UHGV virus genome: UHGV-0025827
Source of the DNA: a virus
Strand: one strand, 5' to 3'
DNA length: 59,104 nt
Part shown: one piece after another, positions 1,024 through 57,510 of the stretch
How the letters are laid out: each line of letters begins with the position of its first letter
Numbering within the stretch: the first letter of the stretch is position 1
Notes under the pieces: generated by a model
The model's input: only the letters and a program-made list of their open reading frames with translations
The model's database searches: none
What the model was told of the DNA's origin: nothing
Translations under genes and position numbers: made by a program

Positions 1024-1733
1024 TGGCCGACAAAGTAAACTACGATGCCCTGCGGACAAACCCGCAGGTGCAGGAGTTCCTGGGCCTGCTCAAGCAATCC
1101 GAGGGCACGGCTGGCAAGGGTGATAACGGGTACAACGTAGGCTTTGGCGGTAACCTGTTCTCCAGCTATAACGACCACCCGCGCCAGCGCAAGACGTTCC
1201 GGCAGACCGATGGCCGTAGCAATGTGACCACCGCAGCTGGCGCGTATCAGTTCCTCGGAAGCACCTGGGACGATGTGTCGAAGTCGCTCGGCCTAAAGGA
1301 CTTCAGCCCAGCGAACCAGGACAAGGCAGCTATCGAGCTTATCCGCCGTGGTGGCGCTCTGGACAACGTACTGACCGGAGACTTCCAGGGTGCGATCAAT
1401 AAGCTCGGCTCTACCTGGGCGAGCCTGCCCAGCTCACCCTACGCGCAGCCGAAAAGAACTATGAATGAGCTACTAGGTGGTGGTACTATGCCAACACAGA
1501 CTGTCTACAAGGATGGCCAGCAAATGGTCGCCGTACCGGAGACAGCCGGGGAACGCGAAAGCATGATGGCGTTCGACATGGCAGGGCACGACAACGCAAC
1601 GCAGTCTATGTTGACCAGCGCCCTGGCCAGAATCACCGAAGCACGGAACTCGCTGGTGACCGACGCCCCACTGTTCGAAGCGTACCCATCTGACCTGGAC
1701 AACCAGCTACTGGAATTGATTGATAGGGCATAA
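1023..1733 (+). CDS. virion-associated lysozyme-like / peptidoglycan hydrolase candidate
   Basis: 236 aa; motif SEGTAGKGDNGYNVGFGG...GAYQF..STW resembles the EGG...GG..G catalytic region of phage muramidases; lies immediately upstream of the giant virion protein. Confidence 0.5.
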   Translation: MADKVNYDALRTNPQVQEFLGLLKQSEGTAGKGDNGYNVGFGGNLFSSYNDHPRQRKTFRQTDGRSNVTTAAGAYQFLGSTWDDVSKSLGLKDFSPANQDKAAIELIRRGGALDNVLTGDFQGAINKLGSTWASLPSSPYAQPKRTMNELLGGGTMPTQTVYKDGQQMVAVPETAGERESMMAFDMAGHDNATQSMLTSALARITEARNSLVTDAPLFEAYPSDLDNQLLELIDRA

Positions 1734-1737
1734 TGTT

Positions 1738-4700
1738 ATGGCGAAAGCTCCTAACCTTTTCGGGCCAGCAGACTTCACGGGCGGTAATGCCGCCCCGATT
1801 GACGACCTGTTTGCCACACCAAAAACGGCCACTCCATCGACGGGTGGCCTTTCCGCATCTACGTCCGTGTCGCAGCGCATCATCAACCGGGCGACGACAC
1901 CGAAGCAGCCTACTCAAAAGCAACTCAAAGCACAGGCTGAAGCAGACCGTCAACGTCAGGTAGAGAGCGTGCGGCAGCAACTGCTCCAGATGCAGCAGTC
2001 ACCAGAGTGGGCAGGCGCTTCGCTTGACCGCCGCCGTGACCTGTACAGCAAATGGAAGGAGCAGAAATGGGACCCAATGCTCCGCTCTATTCAGGACAGC
2101 GATTTGCAGGAGGCACTGAGTATCCTCCCGGCTGAGACACTGAACGCGGACATTAAGAACCTGGAGCGTTCCATCTCCGACGCCAGCCGTCTGTCCGATA
2201 CCTGGCAGGGCGTGAAGGCGAACGCGCTCCAGACTGCACAAGGCATCGGTGACTATGCGCCTGCGGCGATTGACCAGGCTCGGATTGAGAACCTGCGCAA
2301 CATGCTGGCGATGGATGGCAAGCCGCTGGTGCTGGGCGGTGTCCCGCAGATGAATAGCGACGGCACACCGTTCATCCAGAAGTTCACGCCGGAACAGCGT
2401 GCAGAAGTCGAGGCGCAGATTGCCGAGCTGACTGGCTCCCGTAACGAGCAGATGAAGCAGGCAGCAGAGACGCAGAAAGATATCGACGCTATCCGCAACC
2501 AGCAGTCCATCGGCCAGATTGACCGTGACCGCGAGTTGCAGGAAGACATTGGTAACTACGGCGGCTTCGGCGGTACGATGCTCAACGCGCTGGCGCACCC
2601 ATCCAACGCACTCCAGCTGGCCACGGAACAGCTACCGAACGCAGGCGCTGCTATCGCGGCCACTACCATCGGTGGTCTGACTGGTGGCGCTCCTGGTGCA
2701 GTGGCAGGTGCTCGCCTGTCTGGTGGTCTTCTGTCCGCGCAGGATGCTATGTCCTCCGCTATCCAGCAGGTGCAGCAGATGCCAGCCGAACAGCTGGTGG
2801 CGCTGGACTCATACAAGCAGCTGGTGGCCCAGGGGCTTAACCCGGACCAGGCGCGTGACGAGCTGGCGCTCCGTGCTGGCTTCGACGCAGCCGGACTCGG
2901 CGCAGTGGTCGGTACTGTCACTGGTGGCCTGGGTGCTGAAGCTGGCCTGGGGCAGTCACTGTCCGCCATCCTCACCCGCGAGGCTGGCCCGGAAGCAGCG
3001 AGCAGTCTGCTGCGCACTGCCGCCCGTCAGTTACCAACCTTTGCCCGCGAGCTGGGTGTCGAAGGTCTGGAGGAAGGCGGCACACAACTGGTGGCCAACG
3101 TCGCACAGAACCGCCAGACCGGGAGCAACGTCGATATCCTCAACGATGTGGGCGAGTCCGCAGCGCAGGGTATCATCGCGTCCGCGCCTATCTCTGGCGT
3201 TACCGTAGCGCAGGAGACTTACCGTGCAGGAAGAAACAACGCCGCGCCTGCCGACGCCGGGGGAACTCCTGGTGTCAGTGGAGCGCCTAATGCTGACCAG
3301 AACACTGTCGCCCAGCCAGCTACAGGAGGTATTGACAATGAAGGAACGATCACCGTCCCGGATGCCACGCAAGCAGCCACCGCTGAACAGCCGTCAGCCG
3401 CGCCGGAAGCACCCGCCGAAGGTCAGCCCGCTGATACCAGTTCGCCAACTTCAGCGTTAGCGCAGCTGCGTCCTGTCTTCCAGGACATTAACAGCCGTGC
3501 GGGCCAGGCGTTCGAGGCTACCGAAGCCAACGCGTTCATCGACCAGCTCATCGCAGCTGAAGATAACGGTGCGCCCCGTAATGTTATTGAGAACGCACTG
3601 ACCAACATCACCCGCGTCGTGCCACCGGGCCTGGGCTACACCAGCATCCTGGATGGGTACAACCAGCGCCGCGCAGCCCGTGGCGAAGCAGCCGTGGATG
3701 AGATGGCCAGCGCGATTGTGACCAACGAGGAAGTCAACAATGGCACAACAGAACCTGTCACCGAAGCTGATAGCGGAAGCGCTGCAACTGTCGCTGACGT
3801 CAATAGCGCAATGGAAACCGCTACCGCAGCAAGCGAACCAGCTGCCACCACAGTACCTGAAGCTGCTCAGTCAGTTAGTGCAGAGCCTGAAGTCGCAGGG
3901 GTTAGCCGGACCGAGGGCGACAGTGCCGCAGAGAATGGCAGCACTACGCCAGCAGCTGAAACAGTGGGGGCTATTGACCGGGCCATCACAGCCGACAGCC
4001 GACCAGATAATCAGCCAGTATCCGACACAAGCGCGGCAGTCAGTGTTAGCGAACGAGTCGAACCTGGTGAGGCAAGACCGGGGCCAGCAGATGGTCGGAG
4101 CACAGACAGCGCTGCGGTTAGCGAGACGGGGCGTAACACTCGCGTAGGCGATACCGTTACCTATCAAGTCCCGGTGTTCGGGAACCACTTCACTGGTACG
4201 GTGACCTCCGTTAACCCGTCGCGTGCCACCTTCAGCATCCGCACTGACAGTGGCAACACGTTCGAGAACATCCCTATGGCCAACATCCGCCAGGAGCCGC
4301 TGACCGATTCGTTCGGCGACACTGACGTGCAGGCAGAGATGGCTCGTGACGACAACGCCGACGCGCTGGCGCGGGTGAACCAGGCTGTGGCCGATGGTCG
4401 TATGACCGCCGAGCAGGCAGAACGGCTGACACAGAACGCTATGCGCGAAGTCGAGCGTACCAATGACCGCTCCGCTGCTGGCGACTACATCACCGAACGG
4501 CTGAACCGCCTGGATGGCATCCTGCCAGAACGTCCGCAGGACTCCAGTACGATCACCCCCGGTGGTCGCGACATGCCTGCGCTGCGCGGTACTGCGTATG
4601 AAGCGCTGGGTTCGAAAGACCCTGCGTTGTTCCAGGCTGCGAGTGAGCTGACCAAGGCGCTGGTGAACAATGACCCGGTGGCCGCAGACAACGCGGCGCA

Positions 4701-16614: not shown

Positions 16615-18339
16615 CTACACTTCATTTGGGTCAACCGTAAACATGTCGTTGATTGCCTCGTTGATACTGACGCCCAGCTTGATGCTGCGGAACAGCTTGC
16701 GTTCCTCCGCACACGCTGACTGGTGGACAATCTGAATGCTGTCCGCCTTCTGCTTCAGCGAACTCATACGCTCCACCGCCTGCTGGTACACGAACTCGCC
16801 AGAGATCGGTGGCCCGTAGAACACCATCGTGTCCGCCGCTGCCAGCTCGACGCCGAACGCGGTAGTCTTCGGATGGCATAATATTACGTGCGGGTCTTTC
16901 TCGTTCTGGAACGCGTTGAATATCTGGTCGCGCTTCGCCCCGGTCACGCGGCCATCGACAACGCCGACAGTGTAGCCACGCTGCTTCAGGTGCTTCTCTA
17001 CCAGGTCGATGACTGCGGTGAAGGCACAGAACACCACCACCTTCTGCGTCGCCGACTCGATAATCTCCACCAGCCCGTCGATGCGTGACTTCACATCCAG
17101 CTCCACCACCGCGTCGCCCTCGGCCTTCACAACACCCTGGGCAATCTGTAGCAGTTTGAAGGTCAGTGCCGCCTTCGTCGGTGCTTTGATTTCCTCACCG
17201 CTCGTGGCAAGCGCCACCATATCCTCACGGATTTTCTTATACAGCTTCGTCTGTTCGGTAGACATGTCTGCGTCAGCGCCACGGTTCGTGACAGGCGGCA
17301 GTGTCATAATGTCTTTCTTATCGAAGCGGATGCACGGCTGCATGTGCTGGAATATCTTGTCCTTGTATCCCTCGCGTGGCACCCACTTGAACCCGAACTG
17401 AATCATGGTGGAGTCGCGCCATGCCGTGAACGACATGCTCATGTTCTGCGGCGTCACCAGTTTAATCTGGCCGTACACCATCTCCGGGTCGCCTGGCGTA
17501 CCCGTCAGCCCCCACACATACTCGACTGCCCTGCCATCCTTCAGACGGCGGCGGCGGTCCTTCAGCTTAACTGTCTCGCCCTTACCGTTCCTGATAGTTT
17601 TGCCTGGGGTAATCTCCCAGCGCGTCCCGTTCAGTACCTGGTCGGCGGCGTCCCACAGCTGGCTGCGGGTGTTAGCGTAGTGGGTCAGCTCATCCGCAAT
17701 AGCGATGGATATGCGGCCACTCTCTACGCACTTAATCAGCTCATCCTTTACGATCTTAATGCCATCGTAGTTGATGATATAAAAGTCAGCGTCCTGCTTC
17801 AGCAGCTCCCGGCGCTTGCGCGGGTCTTTGTGGTGAACCACAACCACCGTAGCGTTCGGATACATCCCCAGGATTTCCTTCTCCCATACACCGCGCAGGT
17901 TCGTCTTCGTCGCGATGCAAAGGCACCCCGTCACGAGGCGACGCTCCTGTAAGAATCTCGCGGCCACGATACCGCTGGCCGTCTTCCCGGTACGCATGGT
18001 GTTCGTGCAGTAGCCACGGCGATTTTCTGACAGGAACGCCGCCGTGGTTATCTGGTGTGGCATCAGTGGGAACTCGCCCTCTACCAGTGGTAGCTGGCAG
18101 GCGTGGCGCAGTATCTCCAGCCCACGGGTGTTGCAGTTCAGGTTACGCAGCAGCTGTAGCGAGTCCATCTCGTATGGGATGCCGACCAGGTGCATACCCT
18201 GGAACGGAGCCACACGACAATGCGATGGTGGAAAGCTGTTCTGGAAACGTAGCGCTTCCCGTACCTTCAGCACCAGCATCTTCTTGTTGGGCGAAAGGTA
18301 CGCGCCCTCCTTCAGACGCGTCCAGTCGTTAGTTACCAT
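16615..18339 (-). CDS. SNF2/DEAD-like superfamily-2 helicase
   Basis: About 574 aa; DExH box (IADELTHY), GLTGTP motif and helicase C-terminal features; ATG 18339 with GGGGAAG RBS. Confidence 0.8.
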   Translation of the reverse strand: MVTNDWTRLKEGAYLSPNKKMLVLKVREALRFQNSFPPSHCRVAPFQGMHLVGIPYEMDSLQLLRNLNCNTRGLEILRHACQLPLVEGEFPLMPHQITTAAFLSENRRGYCTNTMRTGKTASGIVAARFLQERRLVTGCLCIATKTNLRGVWEKEILGMYPNATVVVVHHKDPRKRRELLKQDADFYIINYDGIKIVKDELIKCVESGRISIAIADELTHYANTRSQLWDAADQVLNGTRWEITPGKTIRNGKGETVKLKDRRRRLKDGRAVEYVWGLTGTPGDPEMVYGQIKLVTPQNMSMSFTAWRDSTMIQFGFKWVPREGYKDKIFQHMQPCIRFDKKDIMTLPPVTNRGADADMSTEQTKLYKKIREDMVALATSGEEIKAPTKAALTFKLLQIAQGVVKAEGDAVVELDVKSRIDGLVEIIESATQKVVVFCAFTAVIDLVEKHLKQRGYTVGVVDGRVTGAKRDQIFNAFQNEKDPHVILCHPKTTAFGVELAAADTMVFYGPPISGEFVYQQAVERMSSLKQKADSIQIVHQSACAEERKLFRSIKLGVSINEAINDMFTVDPNEV

Positions 18340-19100: not shown

Positions 19101-19121
19101 GTCGTTTCTCCCACTATAATG

Positions 19122-19808
19122 TTATGCGTTCTTACCGTTGTGCGGGCAGCTCAGTACGTCGCACCACTGGCCACACAGGCCGTTGCGGATTGCCGGGAAC
19201 TGGTCAGCCGCGCAAGCCTGTTCGTAGCGTGCCACGTCCAGGAGCAAGCCCTGCACCGGAGCCAGGTCAACCAGGTCGAAGCTGTCCATCATCAGCTGGC
19301 CATGCTTCACATGCACCCACAGGTTCAACGTCTTCGTGTACCCCGTGTTGTGCTTGGCGCACAGGCTCAGGATACGCGACTGCGTTTTGTCGTGCTTTGG
19401 CTTCCCGGTCTTCCAGTCCACGTTGATGTTCAGCTGGTGCGTATCGTCCTTAAAGAACACGTCCGCAATCCCACGCAGCCACGGCTTCTTCGGCGGCTTC
19501 GCCAGCCAGGTGGTCGGCTCGAAGTTGCGCGTGATGCACATCTTGTGCTCGACGTACATCGTCATGCCTGGCTGCGCAGCCATCATCCGACACCAGTCTA
19601 CCATCGGTTGCATGAACTCCGCAGCAGGAATCAGTGCCGCCCCTTCCTTCAGTGTCTTCTCGACGCTCTTGTGAACCATGTCACCGAACAACGCCGCTTC
19701 GTTCTGCTGGAACACCACCTCTTTGGTGATGTACTTCGCCTGGTACTGACGCGGACACGTCAGGAATACGTTCAATAACGATGGCGTTATTGGTAATGGT
19801 GTAGCCAT
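19122..19808 (-). CDS. Cas4/RecB-like PD-(D/E)XK exonuclease with a Cys cluster
   Basis: ATG 19808 preceded by GGAGGG; N-terminal CPRQY Cys plus C-terminal CGQWCDVLSCPH, the one-plus-three Cys arrangement of Cas4/AddB-type nucleases. Confidence 0.75.
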   Translation of the reverse strand: MATPLPITPSLLNVFLTCPRQYQAKYITKEVVFQQNEAALFGDMVHKSVEKTLKEGAALIPAAEFMQPMVDWCRMMAAQPGMTMYVEHKMCITRNFEPTTWLAKPPKKPWLRGIADVFFKDDTHQLNINVDWKTGKPKHDKTQSRILSLCAKHNTGYTKTLNLWVHVKHGQLMMDSFDLVDLAPVQGLLLDVARYEQACAADQFPAIRNGLCGQWCDVLSCPHNGKNA

Positions 19809-19853: not shown

Positions 19854-22112
19854 CTACATGTCACCATACGATGGCCCGCTGGAGAACTCACAGTCCAGTG
19901 GCAGACCAGGCACGAACGGCGGCACTGTCTTCATTGCCAGCTCATAGACAGCTCTCACTTTGTCACGCAGCTCCTTGCGGAACACGCTAAACCATTCATC
20001 GTGTACGTTGCCTTTGACCGGGATAACGTCATGGATGCGCACTGCCTGCCAGGTAAGGATGGTAAACGCCAGCGCCTGGATCAAGTTCTCTGTCAGCGAG
20101 CCGCCATAGATATGCTTCGTCATACCGTTCTTACCTTTGTGCTCGCGGAACCGGAACTTCACATAGCCAGTGTCGTCTTCTTTGTACGTCTCCAGGTACG
20201 GGTACACCAGCCATTCGCCGTTCGGCAGCTGGATACCTGGTGCTGGCTCGCCAAAGATTTCGTGCTTGCCATCGAAGTAGAACAGGCAACCATCCGGGCC
20301 ACCGAAGTAACCCTGCTCGCCCTGGCACATCTTACCCAGCACCCACTCGCACATGTCCCAAAAGCCTTTGATGCGCTGGTGGGTCTGACGGTATACCCAG
20401 TTAATACGCTTCGATTCTTTGAGGTGGAAGTCCTGAAGATACTGGTTGTATTCCAGCTCCAGCACGCGCTTGTTGGCGATGATGTGTGACGGCTGTAGCT
20501 TCAGCCACTCCATCACCTGCTCGCGGGACGGCTTCAGTGTGATGCCTTCCTGGCGCAGCGTCAGGGCGAACTTGTTTCCGCTCATCTGATAGCCACTCCC
20601 TAGGATGGTCTTCTTACCCATGAAGCGCATGAAGAACAGGTCAGCCTGCTTCTTCTTGTCCTCACCTTCGAGGCCGTGCGAATCCATCTTAGCCCACTTG
20701 CGTATCTCAGCAGCCGGGACACCGTAGATGATCTCCCCCATGTGGGAGTACGGGTCACCGCCTGTGGCGAAGATGTTCAGCAGCGATGTTTCCTGTGCAG
20801 CGTAGGCCAGGCAACGTGCTTCAACCTGGCTGGAGTCAGCGCCGCCTATCTCGTATCCATCCGGTGCTTCCATCGAATAGCGCAGGGTCTTATCACCCTT
20901 GTGCTTCGGCAGGTTCTGCTGGTTCAGGCCATCGTCTGCACCGTAGCGGTGAGTACGGGCGTTCGCATACTGAAGCGCGAACACGAACAGGCCACGTTCA
21001 GCGCAGTCCAGGAAGCGCAGCGTGCGTGACTCTGCCTGGCTGCTGTTGTTATCCATGCGAGCGGTCACCAGTGCCTGCACGCGCTCGTCCCAATGGGTAG
21101 CCAGCTCGGCAAACGCGGTGTCTTTCACAGCGAAGGCGTAATCCATAACCGGTTCTGCCGCCCACTGGTCCCAGGTCTTGCCTTCCTTCTCCAGCTGCGC
21201 CAGGAACTTCGGCGTCTTCATCTTCGCTACCCAGGCCGGGTCGCTCAGGTTCGCCCGCTTCTTCTCCGTAGCCTTCAGCGACTCCTTCATCGGCGGCTCG
21301 ACACCAACGGCGCGGAGCAGCTCGGCGAACTTCGCCTTCGAACGCAGCAGCTTCATGAACGCTGGGACACCATCGCAGCCATGCTCGCGGGCCATGCTTG
21401 CCAGTGTCTCCTGGCGGCGCTTCATCAGCGCAGCATGGTAGTCCTTCAGCATCTGGCTGTTCAGCCGTATCGCAGGACGCGTGTACATCTGGAGCGTCAT
21501 GTTGCTGGCACGCAGTGTGTCCGGTGGACACTCAGGCAGAAGTATCATTGCCGCCGCGTATAATATTATGGTGTCCGTGCGGCAGTAGCCCATGTAACGC
21601 ATCTTGAATGCTTCGGTCATGTCCTCCAGGCGCAGCCCGTTCGCGTTCTCTACCTCGTGCCCCTTCGCGGGTATCGGGTAGCCCTTGCTACGCAGGAAGT
21701 CAGCCAGCGCACGCAGGCTCTCACCGATGATGCGGGACAGGCCAGTGATGCGCATCATGTGCATGGTGCAGACCAGCATGTTAAAGCGTATGCCCATCGC
21801 CATCTCACCAACACAGCCGTCGAAGCGGGCGTTGTGCGCCACCGTCAGGACGCCAGGCTGTTCAACACCCAGGTTAATCAGCAGCTGGTAACATGCGTCA
21901 TGCCCCCAGGCTTCGTAGACTGTCACACCATCCACGGTGGCCGTCACGCATATCGTCTGGAAGCGTGGGTCACGGACGTACTTCTCAGTCGTCATGTCCT
22001 TGCTGCCCAGGCTGTATTTGTCTGCGGTGTTGTAGTAGGTTTCAAAGTCGAGTGCGACTACCCGGTGTATCCCCAGGCTAATCAGGTTGTCCGGTAACTT
22101 TGGTTGGTTCAT
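19854..22112 (-). CDS. family A DNA polymerase
   Basis: 752 aa; Pol I motif A (GADSSQVEARCLAYAA, i.e. D.SQ.E.R) and a C-terminal HDE region. Confidence 0.85.
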   Translation of the reverse strand: MNQPKLPDNLISLGIHRVVALDFETYYNTADKYSLGSKDMTTEKYVRDPRFQTICVTATVDGVTVYEAWGHDACYQLLINLGVEQPGVLTVAHNARFDGCVGEMAMGIRFNMLVCTMHMMRITGLSRIIGESLRALADFLRSKGYPIPAKGHEVENANGLRLEDMTEAFKMRYMGYCRTDTIILYAAAMILLPECPPDTLRASNMTLQMYTRPAIRLNSQMLKDYHAALMKRRQETLASMAREHGCDGVPAFMKLLRSKAKFAELLRAVGVEPPMKESLKATEKKRANLSDPAWVAKMKTPKFLAQLEKEGKTWDQWAAEPVMDYAFAVKDTAFAELATHWDERVQALVTARMDNNSSQAESRTLRFLDCAERGLFVFALQYANARTHRYGADDGLNQQNLPKHKGDKTLRYSMEAPDGYEIGGADSSQVEARCLAYAAQETSLLNIFATGGDPYSHMGEIIYGVPAAEIRKWAKMDSHGLEGEDKKKQADLFFMRFMGKKTILGSGYQMSGNKFALTLRQEGITLKPSREQVMEWLKLQPSHIIANKRVLELEYNQYLQDFHLKESKRINWVYRQTHQRIKGFWDMCEWVLGKMCQGEQGYFGGPDGCLFYFDGKHEIFGEPAPGIQLPNGEWLVYPYLETYKEDDTGYVKFRFREHKGKNGMTKHIYGGSLTENLIQALAFTILTWQAVRIHDVIPVKGNVHDEWFSVFRKELRDKVRAVYELAMKTVPPFVPGLPLDCEFSSGPSYGDM

Positions 22113-22366: not shown

Positions 22367-22367
22367 A

Positions 22368-23418: not shown

Positions 23419-23697
23419 TCACAGGTCAACGCGGCGAATAACCGCGTCCAGGTTAGTGATGACACTCTCCACTTCGCGCTCCAGCACACGGAGATCTTCA
23501 TACAGCGGAGACAGTGGTTGGTACGGAGCCTTCGGCGCTTCTGCACAGCCCACTGGCTCAGGGAGCGGCTCAAGCAGCACCGGGTTAATCTTCTGCACCA
23601 GCGCACTGGACACGCTGCTCAGGCTGTTGATTGTGTTGCGCAGACGGTCAAGCTGCTGCGCTACGTTACCCACTTTCATGTCGTTACATTCCATCAT
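23419..23697 (-). CDS. hypothetical coiled-coil protein
   Basis: 92 aa; start overlaps the ParB-like gene stop (ATGA). Confidence 0.5.
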   Translation of the reverse strand: MMECNDMKVGNVAQQLDRLRNTINSLSSVSSALVQKINPVLLEPLPEPVGCAEAPKAPYQPLSPLYEDLRVLEREVESVITNLDAVIRRVDL

Positions 23698-24638
23698 TTG
23701 CTCGCCTCATGTTTGCTAAGAAAGTCCAGGATGATCTCCTGCATCCCACGCAACTCGCGCCAGCTGCCAGCAGGACAACGGAGCGTCAGGCTCTGGTCCG
23801 CCGCAGCCGTCTCGACGTTTGCGTTACTACCCTGGTCCACCAGCTCGACGTTCGGCAGGTGAGCCATCAGTGCCTTCAGGTAGACACGGGCGCGGCGTTC
23901 TTCTGCCTCGTCCTCTACCTCTGCCTGCACACGCTTCAGGCGCTTCTCTGTGATGCGCTCCTTACGTGTCTTGAACTTCTGTCCCTCCTGCTTCTCAGCA
24001 GGCTTCTTGCTCTTGCCAGCAGGCGCTGGTGCCGCCGCAGCGTTGACCTGCTTCGCTTCCTTCAGTGCGGCCAGCACCTTGTCCGGCCCCAGGCTACGCG
24101 CCATGTTGATAACTGGAGTGGCGGCAACATCCCCCGCCTCAATCATCGCCATGACTTCCTCGCCGGACATAGCCAGCAGCAGGTGGTTGGCTACGGTGCC
24201 TTCGGAAGCGCCAGTCTCGCGGGCGATCTCCGCATTGCTGTAGCCAGCATTACGCATACGCAAGAACGCGGTGGCGTTCTCTACTGCGGTGCCCTTGCTG
24301 CCCTGGTTGAAACGCCATGCGGCGAACAGGCGTTCCTTCTTCGAGCCAGAAAACTCCGTCATCGGAATCTTCTTCACGCCCGCCTCGATAGCAGCACGCA
24401 CACGGTGCTCACCATCGACCAGCTCCAGCTCGTCATTGTCACCCAGCGCCACCAGGACAGGCGGTACATCCTTACCGTCCAGGTACATCTGCTTGAACAT
24501 CTCGACGCGCTCCGGGTCTACCTTACGGTAGTTGTGCCCGGTCACAATCTTAATGTTCTTCGGTGGCGCAGAGAATGCCTTCGCTGCGGTCATGCCCTGC
24601 TTGTCGCCCTTGTCGTATTTGGTTCCCAGCTTCGCCAT
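23694..24638 (-). CDS. ParB/Srx-like nuclease-domain protein with a C-terminal HTH-like region
   Basis: 314 aa; GGAGAAG RBS; ParB N-terminal motif VDGEHRVRAA (DGxHR); Lys/Ala-rich C-terminus. Confidence 0.75.
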   Translation of the reverse strand: MAKLGTKYDKGDKQGMTAAKAFSAPPKNIKIVTGHNYRKVDPERVEMFKQMYLDGKDVPPVLVALGDNDELELVDGEHRVRAAIEAGVKKIPMTEFSGSKKERLFAAWRFNQGSKGTAVENATAFLRMRNAGYSNAEIARETGASEGTVANHLLLAMSGEEVMAMIEAGDVAATPVINMARSLGPDKVLAALKEAKQVNAAAAPAPAGKSKKPAEKQEGQKFKTRKERITEKRLKRVQAEVEDEAEERRARVYLKALMAHLPNVELVDQGSNANVETAAADQSLTLRCPAGSWRELRGMQEIILDFLSKHEASK

Positions 24639-25015
24639 TATTCTTCTCCGTCTTCTTCGACTTCGAAGTTGATACCTTCAGGCAGCGCCGCTACCTCGTC
24701 CGGTGTCATCTTCGCATACTTACGTGCGGTGGATGCAGGCACACCAGATGCCTTCGCCACCTCCGACCAGCTGGCCGCGCCGCCTTCATCGTTCAGGCAA
24801 GCCTGCACGCGGGACCAGTCTGCCTTGTTCAGCGGACGGCGCGTGTGCTTTTTCTTCTCGACGAACGGCCCTTCTTTCTTCTCGTACATATCCAGCAGGG
24901 GCATCAGTCGTGCGATGACTTCCTTCTGGTTCTTGTACGGGATGCTCATGAACTTAACGAAGGTATCCGTCAGCTGGGTAACCTTCTTCTCAAGCTCGGC
25001 TATGCGTTGTTCCAT
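24638..25015 (-). CDS. hypothetical protein
   Basis: 125 aa; GAGGA RBS; acidic C-terminus. Confidence 0.55.
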   Translation of the reverse strand: MEQRIAELEKKVTQLTDTFVKFMSIPYKNQKEVIARLMPLLDMYEKKEGPFVEKKKHTRRPLNKADWSRVQACLNDEGGAASWSEVAKASGVPASTARKYAKMTPDEVAALPEGINFEVEEDGEE

Positions 25016-25639: not shown

Positions 25640-25662
25640 TTGCCCTTTGTGTCTGTGCCCAT

Positions 25663-25691
25663 AATCTTATGGGGGCCGCAACCCCCATAAT
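25663..25691. promoter_or_regulatory. intergenic hairpin (9-bp G5/C5 stem) flanked by motif copies
   Basis: TTATGGGGG-ccgcaa-CCCCCATAA; CATAATGTTATG at 25686..25697 and CATAATCAATTG at 25631; sits between the HTH gene and the RelE-like gene. Confidence 0.5.
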
Positions 25692-25692
25692 G

Positions 25693-25911
25693 TTATGACC
25701 GCAGCTTCTCTACTTCAGTCGCCAGCTCGCCCGGTGTCATGTCCAGTGCTTCAGCCAACTTAAAGAACGTGGACAGGCGAACGTCACGCTTCAGTGTGGT
25801 GTCAAACCCCTGCGGGTGAACGCCCATCTTTTTCGCCAGCCCGTACTTGGACTCGCCGCGCCTGTTTAGCACTGCCTGTACGGCTTCGCGCAGGGGCAGA
25901 CCCTTCTCCAT
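25693..25911 (-). CDS. XRE-family HTH regulator (Cro/antitoxin-like)
   Basis: 72 aa; HTH segment YGLAKKMGVHPQGFDTTLK. Confidence 0.65.
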   Translation of the reverse strand: MEKGLPLREAVQAVLNRRGESKYGLAKKMGVHPQGFDTTLKRDVRLSTFFKLAEALDMTPGELATEVEKLRS

Positions 25912-28690: not shown

Positions 28691-29558
28691 GCTCGTTGTC
28701 CTCATACACAACCACACCAGCCAGATACACGATGGCACCCAGCAGCTCACGGCGACGGGCGGCACGGTCCTTCATGTTCATTGCCTCAACCACCTTCTTG
28801 CACACCTGATAGGTCATCCCGGTAGGGTTACCCAGCAGGCGGCTGATAGTCTGCATCGGCTGGTGGTCGAACGGCAGGTCGTTAGCGTGGCGCTCCTTGC
28901 CTTTGCCGAACGCCGCTTGTGCATACGCATCCTTCAGCACCGCCGCCAGATGTTCATACCCAGGCGCGTCCATCACACGCTCAGGCTGGCGCAGCTTGGC
29001 GTTGTTGTCCAGCAGCTCGAACGCCTCAACCAGCGCGTCAACGTTCACGCCACCGGGACCACCGAACGCTCTGTGCATCAGCATGTTGAAGCGCTGGTTC
29101 CCGTCGAGCAGTGTCTTAACTTTGCGTGGGCACGGCTCCGGCGTGTTCATGCGGATGACTTCCCGCTCAATCGCTTCGTGAACACGCTGGCCTGCTTCCA
29201 CCGCAGACTTCGGCGCGGGGCCGTTGTCCAGTGCTTCGCGGATAACCTTCTCAATATCCATCCCAGCAGGCACACGGAACGCCTGCATGAGAACATCAGC
29301 CTGCTCGTCCTTCGGTTCTTCCTGACGCCAGCCACGCTTCGCTGCCCATACCCGGATGTAATCCGCTACCGCCTCGTGCGGCTCGCCGTACGGTGAGTTG
29401 GTGGTGCCCCCCATGTACTCCGCACGGATGCCACGGTCACTATGACCAGCCAGCCAGCGACGGCAAATGTCTTTCAGGTGCTCCGCGTTACGCGCCGTTG
29501 CTGTGCGGCGCTCGCTGTCCTGTCCTTTGATACGCAGGGTAAGTTTAATTCCAGCCAT
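28668..29558 (-). CDS. hypothetical protein (296 aa, possible nucleotide-metabolism enzyme)
   Basis: Start ATG embedded in the motif AATAATATTATGG (minus-strand reading); no confidently recognisable catalytic motif. Confidence 0.65.
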   Translation of the reverse strand: MAGIKLTLRIKGQDSERRTATARNAEHLKDICRRWLAGHSDRGIRAEYMGGTTNSPYGEPHEAVADYIRVWAAKRGWRQEEPKDEQADVLMQAFRVPAGMDIEKVIREALDNGPAPKSAVEAGQRVHEAIEREVIRMNTPEPCPRKVKTLLDGNQRFNMLMHRAFGGPGGVNVDALVEAFELLDNNAKLRQPERVMDAPGYEHLAAVLKDAYAQAAFGKGKERHANDLPFDHQPMQTISRLLGNPTGMTYQVCKKVVEAMNMKDRAARRRELLGAIVYLAGVVVYEDNEHGDAKSK

Positions 29559-29562
29559 AATA

Positions 29563-29901
29563 TTATTGGTTAACCTCTCTCAACCATTCGTTAGTAAGTT
29601 CGACGGCCTTCGCTACCGCCTCGCTAAACGTGACTTCAATACCAGACGCCGCAGCCTCCGCTATGAATGTACCCAACGGCTCCGCAACATCGTAATGCCA
29701 GATGCCCGGCCCGTCTTTCTCAGCCAGAAGCGGAGTAACCGCCGCGTCTACCTTCTCCGCCAGAAGCTCTATGTTCTCCACTGCCTCCAGCTCGCCGCCG
29801 TAGCAGAAGACTTCACAGATATTGTGCGCTTCCTTCGCGCCGTCCTGTTTTGTCAGCACGTCACGGAACCCGCCGTAAATAAACATCGCTGTAGTGCTCA
29901 T
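29563..29901 (-). CDS. hypothetical protein
   Basis: 112 aa. Confidence 0.5.
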   Translation of the reverse strand: MSTTAMFIYGGFRDVLTKQDGAKEAHNICEVFCYGGELEAVENIELLAEKVDAAVTPLLAEKDGPGIWHYDVAEPLGTFIAEAAASGIEVTFSEAVAKAVELTNEWLREVNQ

Positions 29902-33054: not shown

Positions 33055-33618
33055 TCATGCGTCCGCCTTAAAGACCGTTGCCCCCGTGTAAAGTTTCGCC
33101 ACGTCGCGCAGCTGGTCAACCATCTTCACCAGCTCATGACACGTTTTCGCCACGTTCTCTATGGCATCCGGCAAACAGCAGTCCCGGAACAATCTGATCC
33201 CTTCCTCCTGCAAATCAGTGTCGTCATGATAGGACCAGTCGAACCCAAAGCCGCACGTCTCCCCCGTGGTTATCCACTCCGTGCCAACCTTCGCGGAGTA
33301 GATGAACCCATAATCGCCCGCGTCAAGGTCGCGCTCCAGCTCATTCTGTAGCGACTCGTATGCTTCGCGGCTCGGATTCTCCCGGCCTTGCTTCGCGTAG
33401 TCGCGGGTCAGTTCAGCAAGCGAGTAATGGCGCGGCTCGTAATACTTCCAGCCGTTGCGGTCCGCGTTGCGGTTGCGTATATACACCCCGCCTTTGTGCT
33501 CATCGGTCCCGCTCCACTTGTCACGGAAGTTTTCCTCCGCGCCACCAAACAGCACCACGTTCACGCGAAAATCTATCCCGTTCTCAGTCAGTTCGAAAGA
33601 CTCGATAGTGTCAGACAT
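33055..33618 (-). CDS. hypothetical protein
   Basis: 187 aa; start ATG embedded in GGGGATAATATTATG (minus-strand reading). Confidence 0.6.
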   Translation of the reverse strand: MSDTIESFELTENGIDFRVNVVLFGGAEENFRDKWSGTDEHKGGVYIRNRNADRNGWKYYEPRHYSLAELTRDYAKQGRENPSREAYESLQNELERDLDAGDYGFIYSAKVGTEWITTGETCGFGFDWSYHDDTDLQEEGIRLFRDCCLPDAIENVAKTCHELVKMVDQLRDVAKLYTGATVFKADA

Positions 33619-33681
33619 AATATTATCCCCATCAGTTACTAAACATAATCGGACGCCGCACCCGGCGACGCCCTGTTATAT

Positions 33682-34986: not shown

Positions 34987-35026
34987 AATGCCGCCATAAT
35001 GTTATGCTTCAGACTATGGCGGCATT
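34987..35026. promoter_or_regulatory. operator-like 12-bp perfect inverted repeat enclosing a motif copy
   Basis: AATGCCGCCATA (34987..34998) and TATGGCGGCATT (35015..35026), with the family motif CATAATGTTATG at 34995..35006 spanning the junction of the left arm and the loop; about 35 bp upstream of the first early gene. Confidence 0.55.
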
Positions 35027-37286: not shown

Positions 37287-37756
37287 CCGACCTCACTGAC
37301 TACAAACCGACTATCCTCACACTGCACCCCTACGAGATGGACGTTATCTTTGTGTGGTCGCCGGACGAGCAGCAGGCGCTGGCGAACTACCTGCGCGAGC
37401 ACCATGACGATGACTGGAAACGCTGGGGTGACTTCGTTGGTGAGAGCGAGTGGAAGTGTCGCGGCCTGAGCTGGGTCGGCGGCTTCGAGGTTCCCACGGT
37501 TATTGGCGTGAACCTCCCACTGTACTGCTCCGGGGAGGATGGCCAGGAGATGTTCCGTGGTGCGATGGCCACACTGTCGCACGAGATATTCCATAGTATT
37601 ATGGCCCTGTGTAAGAACATCATGCAGTACCCGGAGTGGGACCATGACGAGCCGATGGCTTACATGACAGGCTACATCATGAAGCACGCGCTGGAGCTTA
37701 TGCCAGCAGAAATGCCCAGCCTGATGGAGATGGTGGAGAAGGCCGCTACCAAATGA
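37283..37756 (+). CDS. small HExxH zinc-metallopeptidase-like protein
   Basis: 157 aa; HEIFH motif followed by a downstream Glu/Asp cluster (EWDHDE); Trp-rich. Confidence 0.55.
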   Translation: MTDLTDYKPTILTLHPYEMDVIFVWSPDEQQALANYLREHHDDDWKRWGDFVGESEWKCRGLSWVGGFEVPTVIGVNLPLYCSGEDGQEMFRGAMATLSHEIFHSIMALCKNIMQYPEWDHDEPMAYMTGYIMKHALELMPAEMPSLMEMVEKAATK

Positions 37757-37812: not shown

Positions 37813-39207
37813 ATGGCTCACAAGAATCCTGTCGTCCTATCTACGGACGGCAAGAAACATGAAACGCTGGGCAGCAGTGATACGCTGGCACCCGGCAGCA
37901 TTCCAATCTCGGCGGAGTCCGGTAACGGGCTGTCCGTCAAATCAGATGGCCTGTTCGCAGAACCGGGTGGTGGCGGTGGCGGGCTAACCGAAGTCGCGCA
38001 CAACAACAGTCTGTCCGGCGCGGGCACCACTGCTTCCCCACTCGCCGTCCGTGTCAGCGGGCGTGCTGGCAATGCTATCCAGTTCCTGGACCTGGCAACC
38101 AGTGAGGGCGGCTTGTTCGCGGCGCTGGCCAGCGCTGGTGGTATCCCAGGGTTCGGCGAACCGAACATCATTCCAGACCCGACTGATATTGGGATCGTGG
38201 AAGCAAAATATTATGACCTGCTCATGGACAGCTCCATCACGGAAGGGGTGATGTATCACTACCCGACCCTGACTTCTGGTGGTGAGACACTGGAGAATGT
38301 CGGACAAGGCGTGCTGCTTTACGCTATTCCGGCAGGCGATGGAGTTATCGCTTCATACTCCGGCGTGTTCGCCGGGTCGAACCAGCAGGGGCTTCGCGTT
38401 CGTTACATGGATTCCGGCAACACGGTGTTGCTGGTGGAGAACATGCGCGGCCTGGTACTGAACACTGATGGCACACTAACCGGATGGGGGGAACTGTCCA
38501 ACCAACTGGCAGTTCAGGTATCAGCTGACTCGCAGAACGAACTGACTGTTCTCCAGCCAGAGAACTCTGATAACCCTGGGCTGTATGCGCGGCCTATCAG
38601 CGCCATGCTGTTTGCGGCAGACGACTCAATCGTTAAGACCTCGAACTACGAGGGCAACCCGAAGAATGCCGCCATCGCAGCACGGATTAGTACGCGGGCA
38701 AACAACAACCTGCGCCTCATCCCGAACAGCGAGTCAACAGCAGAACGCGGTTTGTTTGCGTCGAAGATGACCCGTGGCACTGGTGGCGGTAACTGGTCGT
38801 TTGGCTACCCTGACTCCCCCGGCGCGAAGAACGCTTGCGGGAAGATTGGTAGCGGCGTCTACTGGAAATCTACCATCGAGATGAGCAACGCTAATGCTGG
38901 CGATGTGAACGTGAAGGTGGATGTGTGGGTCAAGAACTTGCCTTGCATGGAAGATGGCACACTGGTTTCGCACCGGGTTCTGGTTGACTATGCCAGCGCC
39001 ACAACCTCGGCTAAACCGACTGCGGCTATCTGGCTAATCTGCGACACCGCTCCGACTCACATGATTAACATCGAGACGAAGACGATCACTAAACTCCAGC
39101 GTAGCCCTGACTCGCCGACCACTGGCCTGCCAGATTATCCGACTGCACCGGACGGAGAGTATGCCCAGGAGTTCTCATACTCGCGTCAGTATTTCTACAT
39201 GGCGTAA
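37813..39207 (+). CDS. tail fibre / tailspike paralog 1
   Basis: 464 aa; GGAGG RBS; N-terminal about 50 aa conserved with the two downstream paralogs (MA.K.PVV.S.D.K.H..LG..D...SIP.S..SGN.L....DGL); poly-Gly hinge; divergent C-terminus. Confidence 0.75.
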   Translation: MAHKNPVVLSTDGKKHETLGSSDTLAPGSIPISAESGNGLSVKSDGLFAEPGGGGGGLTEVAHNNSLSGAGTTASPLAVRVSGRAGNAIQFLDLATSEGGLFAALASAGGIPGFGEPNIIPDPTDIGIVEAKYYDLLMDSSITEGVMYHYPTLTSGGETLENVGQGVLLYAIPAGDGVIASYSGVFAGSNQQGLRVRYMDSGNTVLLVENMRGLVLNTDGTLTGWGELSNQLAVQVSADSQNELTVLQPENSDNPGLYARPISAMLFAADDSIVKTSNYEGNPKNAAIAARISTRANNNLRLIPNSESTAERGLFASKMTRGTGGGNWSFGYPDSPGAKNACGKIGSGVYWKSTIEMSNANAGDVNVKVDVWVKNLPCMEDGTLVSHRVLVDYASATTSAKPTAAIWLICDTAPTHMINIETKTITKLQRSPDSPTTGLPDYPTAPDGEYAQEFSYSRQYFYMA

Positions 39208-41859: not shown

Positions 41860-42423
41860 ATGGATGGCAAACTTATCGTTCAACCGGAGGATCGTAAAGA
41901 CCTCATGCGCCTCCGTCCACTCTGGTCTAACATCGCCCAGGACATTGTGATGACCAATGTTCCGAACGCGGAAGGGACGGGGCCACTCATCACGCCGCAG
42001 GAAATCTGCGAGAACTATAATATTACGGCCAACGAATGCCTGGCCCTGCTGAAGCTGCCAGAGTTCCGGCGACTGGTGAAGGACTATCGCAAGCGTGTCG
42101 ATGCGATGGGCGATAATGCGTCCATAACATTACGGGCACAAATGCTGGCGTCCTCGCTTATGGAGACGGTGTACCTGGATGTGATGAAGGCTGGCTCCGA
42201 CACGAAGGACCGCATCAAGGTGATGGAGCGACTGTTCCAGTACGGCGGTCTGGACCCGGCAACCAACGGCCAGAACAAACAGAAGTCCGGCGATGGCGGT
42301 GGCGGGAACGCTGCGGCGATTGGCCAGGTTATCATCAACGTCCCGGCTGGTATCCCTGGCATGGAACATGTGCAGCAGCGTGCCCCGGTGACCCTGGACG
42401 CGGAGGTGCAGAGTGGCGACTAA
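41860..42423 (+). CDS. small terminase subunit candidate
   Basis: 187 aa immediately upstream of and overlapping the large terminase; HTH-like N-terminal region; contains two direct ATAAYATTACGG repeats. Confidence 0.5.
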   Translation: MDGKLIVQPEDRKDLMRLRPLWSNIAQDIVMTNVPNAEGTGPLITPQEICENYNITANECLALLKLPEFRRLVKDYRKRVDAMGDNASITLRAQMLASSLMETVYLDVMKAGSDTKDRIKVMERLFQYGGLDPATNGQNKQKSGDGGGGNAAAIGQVIINVPAGIPGMEHVQQRAPVTLDAEVQSGD

Positions 42424-46351: not shown

Positions 46352-46863
46352 GCAGCATGATTGATACTGGTGGCCACTACACCGGGAGAGGATCGTCCTG
46401 TGACGACAACCGCCCGGTACAGGGCGAGCACCAGGTACTGTTTGACCAGTCCAGCACGTTCCTGCAATCGGGACTTATCATTGTACGTGCTGACCAGCCT
46501 GTGATGCTGGTAGCGTACATGGTCCCGGAGGGGGCAGAGTTCGTCGTCGAAGGTGTGAGCGTCGGTAGCCGTGCAGTCCAGCAGGGTGGCGGTTGTTGTT
46601 CTCCATGTGGTCCGACACTCATGGGCCAGGGCGCGGCGGACATTCGCTTCCGCGAGCCGATGGCGCTGGGTGGCAATACCTGGTCCATCAACCCGAATAA
46701 CCGCCGTCTGGTTATCACGCTGCCTGGCACTTACATGCTGGTGCTGAACGATGACCAGTATCTCGGCAGCGTTCACGTCGAGCTGGTGGAGCTGGGTAAA
46801 GTTAAGACCACCATCCCGGATGGGTATGTCGCGGGCCTTAATATTATGACCGCTCCGGTGTAA
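46348..46863 (+). CDS. hypothetical head-region protein
   Basis: 171 aa from ATG 46348 (GGGGAG RBS). Confidence 0.55.
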   Translation: MSSMIDTGGHYTGRGSSCDDNRPVQGEHQVLFDQSSTFLQSGLIIVRADQPVMLVAYMVPEGAEFVVEGVSVGSRAVQQGGGCCSPCGPTLMGQGAADIRFREPMALGGNTWSINPNNRRLVITLPGTYMLVLNDDQYLGSVHVELVELGKVKTTIPDGYVAGLNIMTAPV

Positions 46864-48586: not shown

Positions 48587-48760
48587 ATGGCAAGACGACC
48601 AATGGCAATGCCGCTCTTTGAGCCGACTTGTGATCGTCGTCAGTTCCTGGCCGAGCGGGATGAGATGCGTGAGATGGTGCGGCAAGACAAGCGTTGCCAC
48701 AAAATCAACACCCGCCCAGGTTTTCAGAAGCTGGCTAACATGAAATTCAATCGGGGATAA
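48587..48760 (+). CDS. small ORF (57 aa)
   Basis: Strong GGAGG RBS; below the 60-aa cut-off of the supplied track. Confidence 0.4.
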   Translation: MARRPMAMPLFEPTCDRRQFLAERDEMREMVRQDKRCHKINTRPGFQKLANMKFNRG

Positions 48761-48764
48761 TATT

Positions 48765-48920
48765 ATGGCTTGTGCAGCATGTGGTAACAAAGCGCGTCGC
48801 CCAATGCGTAGTACCGTTGGAAAACCCGTTAACCAGTCCCAGCCTGCTCGTTCTGGTTCCACCAGCAACAATGACCGTGGACGCAGCCGTGTGACTGGCT
48901 TGCGCTGGAACAGCAAATGA
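48765..48920 (+). CDS. small basic ORF (51 aa)
   Basis: ATG embedded in GGGGATAATATTATGG; Arg/Lys-rich; stop overlaps the next start. Confidence 0.4.
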   Translation: MACAACGNKARRPMRSTVGKPVNQSQPARSGSTSNNDRGRSRVTGLRWNSK

Positions 48921-50209: not shown

Positions 50210-51163
50210 ATGCCTGGCTTTAAATCTGCATCGGGTTATGGTGGCCTGGAGTCTACCCCGTTAGCGCAAATTGGTTATTACAACCAGATTATTGCGCAGG
50301 CGTGGGAGCGCGACTTCCTTCCAGAAATCACCAATACCGAAATCGACGAGCGTCTGACTGAGTGTAATCAGACGGTTCAATTCGTTCGCCAGCCGAAAGT
50401 CGGCAAATGGCGTCGTTACGAAAAGAACCAGGAACTGATCGCTAACCAGCTGACGCCTGAAGGCTTCACTCTGGAAATCTGCAACGCGGCGTACCAGGAT
50501 ATCAAAATCGACAAGATGGATATCAAGCGTGCGTGCGAACGCTGGTCTGCCTGGGAAGCATCATTCCTGGAATCCACCTACCAGTCTCTGACTGAGATGT
50601 GGCGTACCTGGGTTCTGACTGCGATGGTGCTGGAAGCCTCGCCGGAGAACAAAGGTAACAACGCGGGTATCCGTGGTGACGTACAGCTGGGACAGCCTGG
50701 TGCTCCGCTGACCGTGACACCGGACAACGTACAGCGTGCGTTTGCGCGTCTGCAACGTATCCTGCGTGACCGCCACCGTTGGGAAGAAGACAAGATGTTC
50801 GTCATCATCCCGACTGCACTGAAAGAAGTGCTGTCCATGTCTCCGTATGCACGCGCAGACTGGATGGGCGATTGCGTGTCCTGCTCCATGAACATCGACG
50901 GTCTACTGCCGCGTAAGCTGTGGGGCTTCAACGTGATTGAATCCACCTACGCGCCGACTGCTGTCGATAGCACTGGCGAGCTGGCGTACTACATCATCGC
51001 TGGTCACCGTGAAGCGTATGCCTTCGCCGCCGATATTATCGAAGGCCGTCTGGTAGAACCTTCTCGTACCTTCGGCGTTGAGTATCAGATGCTGGCGGTG
51101 TGGGGCGGCAAGGCGATCTTTGACGACGCCCTGGCGATTGGCTACTGGACCTTCGGAGAGTAA
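50210..51163 (+). CDS. major capsid protein candidate
   Basis: 317 aa; AGGAG RBS; position after the scaffold; part of the abundant-transcript block ended by the strong terminator at 51865. Confidence 0.55.
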   Translation: MPGFKSASGYGGLESTPLAQIGYYNQIIAQAWERDFLPEITNTEIDERLTECNQTVQFVRQPKVGKWRRYEKNQELIANQLTPEGFTLEICNAAYQDIKIDKMDIKRACERWSAWEASFLESTYQSLTEMWRTWVLTAMVLEASPENKGNNAGIRGDVQLGQPGAPLTVTPDNVQRAFARLQRILRDRHRWEEDKMFVIIPTALKEVLSMSPYARADWMGDCVSCSMNIDGLLPRKLWGFNVIESTYAPTAVDSTGELAYYIIAGHREAYAFAADIIEGRLVEPSRTFGVEYQMLAVWGGKAIFDDALAIGYWTFGE

Positions 51164-51167
51164 TATT

Positions 51168-57506: not shown

Positions 57507-57510
57507 TATT

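Follow-up and report, generated by a model that had tools for sequence, protein, structure and literature searches.

An orphan ParB/KorB-type protein of a virulent phage and a dispersed palindrome as its candidate DNA site

ParB-fold switches gated by cytidine triphosphate (CTP) do more than segregate DNA, as known for Noc, KorB and VirB, and many orphan ParB-like genes are present in phages. We know of no orphan ParB-like protein of a virulent phage with a known role. In this study, we analyzed the virus genome UHGV-0025827, a stretch of 59,104 nucleotides with a G+C content of 57.6% (the window in the following), which encodes a predicted ParB/KorB-type protein of 314 amino acids (aa; ParB in the following) and carries 19 copies of a degenerate palindrome dispersed over its length. 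Both are compared here with the closest described systems, and the palindrome is weighed as the candidate DNA site of ParB.

The IncP plasmid RK2, with a size of about 60 kb, contains 12 dispersed 13-bp palindromic operators, comparable to the 19 palindromes of 12–14 bp in the 59 kb studied here. KorB of RK2 acts at its operators without a tie to partition. Like the phage protein, it combines a ParB N-terminal domain with a helix-turn-helix (HTH), and the KorB entries 8qa8 and 8qa9 were matched by Foldseek with E about 1e-7. As in the KorB/KorA system, a small HTH protein, here a protein of 125 aa termed gp125, is encoded directly upstream. An analogy to KorB for an orphan ParB with 19 dispersed palindromes and an upstream small HTH protein therefore appears reasonable. 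However, the sequence similarity to KorB is confined to the HTH (family profile, E 0.09), and KorB has IncC, a ParA, and thereby a ParA-interacting role for which there is no counterpart here. Furthermore, the replicon is a virulent phage instead of a plasmid, box III of the nucleotide pocket is divergent, and the sites are located at start/stop junctions and within genes and apparently not at sigma-70 promoters.

The best profile and fold matches over N-terminal domain and HTH were obtained with chromosomal ParB/Spo0J and Noc, and the Arg of box I, the G-E-x-R of box II and the Asn/Gln of box III are kept in the phage protein. The Noc site is a 14-bp palindrome dispersed over the chromosome. 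Unlike these proteins, the phage ParB occurs without ParA, without the LG(R/K)GL peptide and without a Noc-type membrane-targeting context. Phage-encoded ParB-family proteins are also SopB of N15 with sopC and P1 ParB with parS, and in N15 palindromic centromere sites are dispersed over the genome near promoters. These phages are temperate plasmid-prophages with ParA/SopA partners, whereas neither lysogeny nor ParA genes were detected here. Proteins of the same family, PHROG 1033, are encoded by lytic phages (Jilinvirus ep3, Skatevirus, Webervirus-like), and ep3 has a dispersed palindrome of its own; however, these proteins share at most 32% identity with ParB and have other recognition helices, and the phages Skate and VLCpiS13f are without a dispersed palindrome. 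A functional characterization of PHROG 1033 proteins of lytic phages was not found in the literature. A further possible likeness is to VirB of Shigella, an orphan ParB-like CTP switch which counteracts H-NS as an anti-silencer on the virulence plasmid, loads at AT-rich inverted repeats and affects transcription at a distance (PMC10770331). Here, such a role would be a candidate only, and in contrast to VirB the 19 sites are evenly spread on a GC-rich phage genome.

As judged from sequence profiles and a structure model, the protein is very probably a ParB-family DNA-binding protein and not a partition protein. PHROG 1033 (‘ParB-like partition protein’) was matched with E 2e-36 over residues 6–241. 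The family profile matched Thermus Spo0J (1vz0) with E 6e-14 over residues 42–196, and also Noc and the ParB proteins of Caulobacter, Bacillus, Helicobacter and Myxococcus. With the single sequence, the Pfam match to ParB_N (PF02195) was below threshold (E 7e-4; 20.1 bits vs. a gathering threshold of 26.3), the match to HTH_ParB (E 1e-4) was just under and that to Sigma70_r4_2 just over threshold; in several homologues, a precomputed PF02195 match is present. The AlphaFold2 (AF2) model is confident for residues 21–200 (predicted local distance difference test score, pLDDT, about 86–94). In a Foldseek search against PDB with this model, the top 29 matches were ParB, Noc, Spo0J and KorB chains with E about 1e-8 and 170–210 aligned columns covering N-terminal domain and HTH, the match to KorB being not better than those to ParB or Noc.

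In an alignment of 14 homologues with 97–36% identity, residues 1–195 are strongly conserved, followed by a variable linker and a moderately conserved C-terminal domain. The protein thus has the full ParB layout of an N-terminal ParB/Srx nucleotide-pocket domain, a ParB-type HTH, a basic flexible linker and a C-terminal domain (Table 1). An earlier note on this DNA, made from the sequence alone, had described a 314-aa open reading frame (ORF) with a DGEHR motif in the early region, and all of this was confirmed: DGEHR represents residues 75–79 within LELVDGEHRVRAA, and the gene, which starts with ATG preceded by GGAG, belongs to the leftward early/replication block. An HTH between N-terminal domain and C-terminus, set in that note as a check beforehand, is predicted by the model (pLDDT about 90, residues 21–200) and by the PDB and Pfam matches. 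The note had also assigned a basic C-terminal region; the basic part exists, but it is the internal linker, in which residues 201–227 are disordered (AF2, pLDDT <50), and the C-terminal domain itself is slightly acidic. For the latter domain, helices and two short strands were modelled (pLDDT 60–81) and no fold match was obtained; a block SLTLRCPAGSWREL is common to ParB and the ep3 homologue ep3_0056. The HTH shows the pattern EIA..G.SEG.VANHLLLA, and its recognition helix SEGTVANHLLL is near-invariant across the family.

Everything which ties a ParB to partition is missing, i.e. the protein is an orphan. A ParA-type (deviant) Walker A motif is absent from all reading frames of the window, and members of the ParA family were found by PHROGs and Pfam neither in the neighborhood or the genome nor in the loci of relatives. 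The ParA-binding peptide (L/F/I)G(K/R)G(L/F/I) was not found by regular-expression search in ParB and six relatives. The score for TIGR00180 was below cutoff (35.7 vs. 58.45 bits), as was that for the Noc model (32 vs. 315). Annotation of the genome with PHROGs and Pfam revealed terminase, portal, major head and internal virion proteins, two lysins, a virion-type giant protein of 2467 aa and a replication module, and no integrase, protelomerase, repressor or RNA polymerase was detected. There is no close cultured relative: megablast yielded no match, ParB shares no more than 32% identity with GenBank phages, and the identities for the DNA polymerase reach at most 28%. The genome represents a novel clade of uncultured lytic/virulent phages of about 55–60 kb, in which ParB is a core gene heading the replication module. 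The gene order is kept in all ParB-positive relatives examined: ParE-like protein, gp121, gp125, ParB, a small ORF and a DHH/DHHA1 phosphoesterase are followed by family A DNA polymerase, PD-(D/E)XK nuclease, SNF2 helicase and DUF927 primase-helicase.

For the palindrome, the earlier note had given about 20 copies of the 12-mer CATAATATTATG. As an exact sequence, this 12-mer has no copy in the window (five in the relative L016) and was rejected as motif definition; redefined from the data as degenerate (C)CATAATATTATG(G), the motif is real and present in 19 copies. These sites have at most one mismatch from the 10-bp core ATAATATTAT, with 0.24–0.32 expected according to a second-order Markov model. 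The variant TAATATTA is present in 12 copies vs. 0.1 expected, and 34 sites with at most three mismatches from the 12-mer were counted vs. 9 expected. The consensus pooled over relatives is the 14-bp palindrome CCATAATATTATGG, and no other repeated palindrome family was found in the window. In 47 pooled sites which are not gene starts, the flanks are symmetric, with C at −1 in 57% and G at +11 in 72%, and C at −2 in 49% and G at +12 in 51% (background about 27%). The spacing is even (one copy about every 3.3 kb across 59 kb), with a coefficient of variation of the intervals of 0.42–0.50 vs. about 0.93 for random placement (P 0.0002–0.002), and this was seen again in relatives, with P 0.007 for L016 alone and P 0.0004 combined. 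Divergent relatives show nucleotide-level conservation of the copies within the polymerase and helicase genes; the one in the polymerase gene encodes Ile-Ile-Leu by the codons ATA-ATA-TTA, where ATA makes up 7% of the Ile and TTA 3% of the Leu codons. The palindrome is thus real, symmetric, conserved, evenly spaced and degenerate. Its symmetry, even dispersal and tolerance of coding sequence point to a site that is bound as duplex DNA by a dimeric protein. In size, it is similar to ParB-family sites (Noc, 14 bp; KorB, 13 bp; parS, 16 bp).

A pairing of ParB with (C)CATAATATTATG(G) is the best single hypothesis for this palindrome, although it is put forward tentatively and stays short of probable. 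The complete statement of an orphan ParB/KorB-type sequence-specific duplex-DNA binder of a virulent phage, including this candidate pairing, is regarded as a serious possibility somewhat below the level of the probable. A ParB dimer, joined by the C-terminal domain, would read the palindromic site with its two HTHs, and (C)CATAATATTATG(G) would be the best candidate site as the only repeated palindrome, with 19 even copies, many of them at gene boundaries. From such loading sites, ParB could act on the whole phage chromosome in the manner of KorB, Noc or VirB, perhaps as a clamp gated by nucleoside triphosphate (NTP) which slides or spreads. Coordinated phage transcription or organized replicating phage DNA would be the likeliest outcome, perhaps with gp125 in a KorA-like role.

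For the clamp step, the sequence of the nucleotide pocket gives a mixed picture. Box I is represented by the invariant G34-x-N36-x-R38, box II by LELVDG(E/H)HR with the GxxR phosphate-binding box kept as G76-E-H-R79 (invariant except for E/H at position 77), and box III by the invariant R109..Q112-G113. Compared to the canonical CTP motifs, QPR of box I is replaced by N-Y-R, GERR of Spo0J by GEHR and ENLQR by RFNQG; part of the key residues is retained, another part replaced. Clamp closure appears possible because GxxR, the Asn/Arg of box I and the Asn/Gln of box III are retained. However, the Glu and the Arg of ENLQR have been lost from box III, and box II has GEHR instead of GERR, which counts against this step and makes CTP binding and hydrolysis uncertain. 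In orphan ParB-like proteins of mobile elements box III is often divergent, and the nucleotide specificity (CTP, ATP or GTP) is not predictable from sequence (PMC12704722); the phage protein matches this class. NTP-gated sliding by ParB is graded as unlikely. Decidedly unlikely as a whole is the most elaborate version, in which nucleotide-gated clamp loading at about 19 palindromes would coat, organize or regulate the lytic chromosome with gp125 as a KorA-like lock.

Loci of relatives (designated L) were gathered by an exhaustive HMMER search and by a search anchored on the SNF2 helicase. In 9 of 11 ParB-positive lineages the motif is enriched, with observed/expected numbers of 6/0.17 in L001, 7/0.19 in L004, 6/0.67 in L005, 13/0.65 in L016, 4/0.08 in L017, 9/2.1 in L018, 2/0.24 in L007 and 5–7/0.1 in L020–L022. 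The ParB-negative set consists of 23 loci of distant relatives found via the helicase (35–47% identity), which have the same order from PolA to primase and include 2–7 kb upstream of PolA. At the syntenic position of these loci, no ParB-like ORF was found (hidden Markov model E < 1e-5), the whole ParE-like/gp121/gp125/ParB/DHH module is absent, and the motif is not enriched (9 sites vs. about 10 expected). In Escherichia phage ep3 (L008; KM360178), a different 13-bp palindrome, AACAAnnnTTGTT, has seven copies vs. 0.08 expected; the alignment of ep3_0056 covers 95% of the query, C-terminal domain included, and its recognition helix differs. The neighboring ep3_0054 was considered as a second ParB and rejected, as it shows no similarity. 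An accessory gene tracking motif density was not found among the relatives. In total, the comparative data speak for a connection of the palindrome with the ParB module, which is correlative.

Several comparative results weigh against ParB as the reader. The ParB-positive genomes form one clade, and therefore the link between ParB and palindrome is phylogenetically non-independent. The genes for gp125, DHH and the ParE-like protein follow the same pattern of presence and absence as ParB, and the HTH of gp125 is equally conserved, so that these data do not separate ParB from gp125. In L014 (2/1.6) and L006 (2/0.5) the motif is not enriched although the recognition helix is identical (SEGDVANHLLLA), which makes this clade a genuine exception; conversely, L018 keeps the motif though the helix is changed to TEGDVGNHLLLW. 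The lack of a dispersed palindrome in Skate and VLCpiS13f despite the same PHROG family has to be added. Finally, ParB-negative relatives carry weakly enriched palindromes of their own (L036, L039, L040, L045), either CTGTACAG with up to 8 vs. 1.2 expected or CAGTACTG with 6 vs. 0.8, and dispersed palindromes thus also occur outside the ParB carriers.

The first alternative, which is rather unlikely, is that the palindrome is a protein site read by gp125 or a host factor, and that ParB binds another site and acts locally, e.g. in an accessory or regulatory role for the replication module. In gp125, an N-terminal coiled coil suited for dimerization is followed by a basic stretch and then by an HTH at the C-terminus, in which T96, R98 and Y100 are invariant. 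The protein gp125 is translationally coupled to ParB and co-occurs with the motif at clade level as ParB does. Among the ParB-positive relatives tested by tblastn, only L018 gave no gp125 match beside ParB, and there an aligned homologue of 124 aa is encoded at the same position. The persistence of ParB with an unchanged helix in the motif-poor L014 and L006, and the two phages with ParB-like proteins and no dispersed palindrome, would also be accounted for. However, gp125 is present in L014 and L006 too and thus meets the same exception, no other repeated palindrome in the window is available for ParB, and a symmetric site of 12–14 bp fits the size of ParB-family sites. The iterons (GGTTACA) of the control region were rejected as a ParB target because each relative has an iteron sequence of its own, whereas the ParB helix, like the palindrome, is constant. 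Another HTH protein, the Cro/C1-type HTH_26 protein (25693–25911), was rejected as universal reader; it was not detected in the motif-rich L005, L016 and L018. For gp125, both a role as KorA-like partner and one as rival binder are possible.

The second alternative, distinctly unlikely, takes the AT-rich element mainly as an expression signal apart from ParB, i.e. either a −10-like promoter without −35, recognized by the host RNA polymerase alone or together with a phage factor, or a signal in the RNA at translation initiation regions, e.g. for processing or as a translational operator of the RegA type. It would explain the enrichment at the 5′ boundaries of genes, where 10 of the 19 sites are located at gene boundaries and non-coding DNA makes up 13% of the window. 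Read along the gene direction, many copies show a Shine–Dalgarno (SD) sequence followed by TAATATT-ATG-G. Depending on the gene calls accepted, a called or plausible ORF starts at the ATG of four to seven window copies, and TAA is the stop codon of the upstream gene in five junction copies. Among the 66 pooled copies, 19 (about 30%) are SD-ATG start contexts, and several copies give the upstream TAA stop. In L018 the motif precedes the SD in four cases, where it is placed like a −10 element (TATAATATTAC-GGGGGT-N4-6-ATG). These start contexts and the arrangement in L018 weigh against the ParB pairing as well. An extended −10-like sequence, TGATTATATTAAC (variant TGATTATACTAAC), precedes early genes of L014, about 25 nt upstream of several starts (3150–3180, 4836–4866, 5575–5605). 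One perfect sigma-70 promoter has TAAGAT(TA) as −10, and some palindrome copies flank GC hairpins.

However, a −35 partner was not found above background and there is no TG extension, by which a standard sigma-70 promoter was rejected. In the clade of the window the motif follows the SD, and an RNA initiated behind the motif would therefore have neither SD nor ATG. A mere start-codon context was rejected as sole explanation, since only 19 of 66 copies are starts, the flanks of the other sites are symmetric, the register to SD and ATG differs between clades and conserved copies are located within genes. The CC…GG flanks of the non-start sites are required neither by sigma-70 nor by an RNA signal, and one of the conserved internal copies is 550 nt into the polymerase gene. 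At orthologous junctions, the register of the motif relative to SD and ATG is not kept: the copy at the PD-(D/E)XK junction is 21 nt ahead of the next start in the window, whereas its ATG is the start codon in L004 and L016. No Rfam family was matched, and tRNAs were not found either. Internal in-frame starts (5 of 6 in frame) were discarded as an explanation; the excess is not significant (P about 0.11) because TAA in the motif forbids one of the three frames.

As a third alternative, the protein could be an enzyme (ParB-like nuclease or NTPase) which serves DNA processing, host takeover or anti-defense, instead of a site-specific DNA-binding regulator; this reading is very improbable. The DG(E/H)HR box is similar to those of DndB- and DUF262-type ParB-fold NTPases (DGQHR/DGxxR). 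There are very weak Pfam matches to DndB (E 0.11) and ParBc_2 (PF08857, E 0.22), and phage ParB-fold proteins are often suspected of anti-defense roles (PMC12704722). However, both Pfam matches are far under threshold. Sulfiredoxin (Srx), SbnI and serine kinase (SerK) matched, by structure and profile, the N-terminal domain of about 80–120 residues only (some aligned spans are longer) with E 1e-3 to 1e-2, whereas ParB, Noc and KorB align through the HTH with E about 1e-8. Neither a fused enzymatic domain nor a PADLOC match was found, and the nuclease which the earlier note had offered as an alternative is thus poorly supported. Finally, it is extremely improbable that ParB is a true partition protein of a plasmid-prophage with the palindromes as dispersed centromeres like N15 SopB/sopC, despite the full ParB architecture and the N15 precedent, in view of the missing ParA-type Walker A motif and ParA-binding peptide, the absence of detectable integrase, protelomerase and repressor genes, the TIGR00180 score under cutoff and the location of the gene in the lytic replication module in all relatives.

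Table 1. Positions of the predicted ParB gene, its protein domains, gp125 and the palindrome copies (window coordinates, except for phage ep3)
Feature	Position	Strand	Remarks
Gene of the predicted orphan ParB/KorB-type protein	23694..24638	minus	ORF of 314 aa; PHROG 1033, family profile, Foldseek
Predicted ParB/Srx-type N-terminal (NTP-pocket) domain, residues 21–112	24303..24578	minus	boxes I–III, pLDDT 78–93
Predicted ParB-type HTH region, residues 118–183	24090..24287	minus	Pfam HTH_ParB, Sigma70_r4_2, Spo0J/Noc HTH alignment
Variable basic Lys/Ala/Pro-rich linker, residues 196–243	23910..24053	minus	14 K+R, net +7, variable in alignment
C-terminal domain, residues 244–314, putative dimerization	23697..23909	minus	moderate conservation; putative function
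gp125, 125 aa, coiled coil and C-terminal HTH	24638..25015	minus	stop overlaps ParB start; weak HTH matches
Palindrome copy CATAATGTTATG	1730..1739		TAA is stop of gene 1023–1733; ATG is start of the 2467-aa ORF
Palindrome copy in giant ORF	8405..8414		gene-internal
Palindrome copy in DUF927 primase-helicase gene	12715..12724		gene-internal
Palindrome copy in 3′ end of SNF2 helicase gene	16878..16887		same position in L001, L004, L005, L007, L016, L017
Palindrome copy at PD-(D/E)XK stop/next-gene junction	19116..19125		junction copy also in L003/L004 and L016, other ATG register
Palindrome copy in DNA polymerase gene	21560..21569		rare-codon Ile-Ile-Leu; kept in L001, L003, L004, L005
Intergenic palindrome copy, right of GC hairpin heading the ParE-like…ParB operon	25661..25670		hairpin −28.6 kcal/mol; position kept in L001, L003, L004, L007
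Palindrome copy overlapping HTH_26 gene stop	25687..25696		with 25661 the only closely paired sites
Palindrome copy at stop/start junction	29557..29566		kept in L001, L004
Palindrome copy holding start codon of gene 33055–33618	33617..33626		
Palindrome copy in loop of conserved long hairpin, control region	34996..35005		
Palindrome copy CATAGTATTATG in gene 37550–37756	37593..37602		
Palindrome copy in gene 37813–39207	38205..38214		
Palindrome copy in gene 41860–42423	42017..42026		
Palindrome copy in gene 46348–46863	46838..46847		
Palindrome copy at stop/start junction	48757..48766		
Palindrome copy at major head gene stop/next gene start	51160..51169		
Palindrome copy in structural gene 53493–54134	53869..53878		
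Palindrome copy at stop/start junction	57503..57512		
Palindrome copies of phage ep3 (ep3 coordinates)	1468, 14969, 16288, 33461, 37339, 38720, 39277		three bracket ep3_0054 and ParB-like ep3_0056

In the neighborhood of ParB, the ParE-like toxin domain (E 5e-11) is encoded by an ORF of 82 aa (25391–25639, minus strand), which is located upstream of ParB in most relatives examined and was not detected in L005 or L006. Between DHH and polymerase, a small crAss001_48-related protein is encoded (22154–22477, minus strand; E 6e-15), and at this position L001, L003 and L005 have a Tad2-like gene (anti-Thoeris family) instead. Another ORF of 82 aa (16631–16879, minus strand) in the 3′ end of the helicase gene is opened by the out-of-frame ATG of the palindrome copy located there, and this ATG is kept in relatives. 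The giant ORF of 2467 aa (1738–9141, plus strand) follows a lysozyme-like gene and matches only PHROGs of unknown function, one of them a family of 3427 residues; it may represent an ejected internal virion protein.

The non-coding region of 1.5 kb at 34832–36362 contains an iteron-type array (35640–36050), in which 10 of the 17 GTTACA copies of the window are located within 410 bp. A very AT-rich core separates four TGTAAC(C) at its left from six (G)GTTACA at its right, and the array is probably an origin or master control region. In the equivalent region of relatives the iteron is GGAAACA in L003, GTGCGCA in L016 and CACTATGC in L014. The same region has a conserved long imperfect hairpin or cruciform at 34976–35037 (about 55–120 in L004, about 1357–1422 in L003; −25 to −33 kcal/mol), which shows compensatory changes between relatives (CAATGCC/GGCATTAG vs. 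CAGTGCC/GGCACTAG) and carries a palindrome copy in its loop. At the start of the rightward gene block, there is a near-consensus sigma-70 promoter TTGACA-N16-TAAGAT (36657–36684, plus strand), the −10 of which overlaps the motif-like TAAGATTA.

Two further repeats were noticed. The octamer GTGCCGCC has 18 copies on both strands (e.g. at 8432, 13955, 17166, 19634 and 27002) vs. roughly 4 expected from base composition; most of them are gene-internal and both orientations occur. The sequence CAGTGCCGCC has eight copies in the window and is frequent in L004 and L005, too. A 16–19-mer, GCTGCTGTACTGGCTG..., is repeated five times at 15024–15285 in gene 14935–16140 (minus strand); it was rejected as a regulatory repeat, as it is a coding Gln/Pro/Val-rich low-complexity repeat.

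A description of this palindrome or of the function of an orphan ParB of a lytic phage was not found in the literature. With a full-architecture orphan ParB, a defined palindrome of 12–14 bp and a candidate partner, the locus represents a testable case, for which the relatives provide natural controls with ParB and motif, with ParB and few motifs, and with neither. Should ParB prove not to be the partner, the evenly spaced palindrome would still be a genome-wide element in need of a reader. If the pairing is true, the chromosome of a lytic phage would be under genome-wide control or organization by a ParB-type clamp, and KorB-style control of a whole replicon would have moved into a lytic virus, with loading sites in gene junctions and coding sequence.

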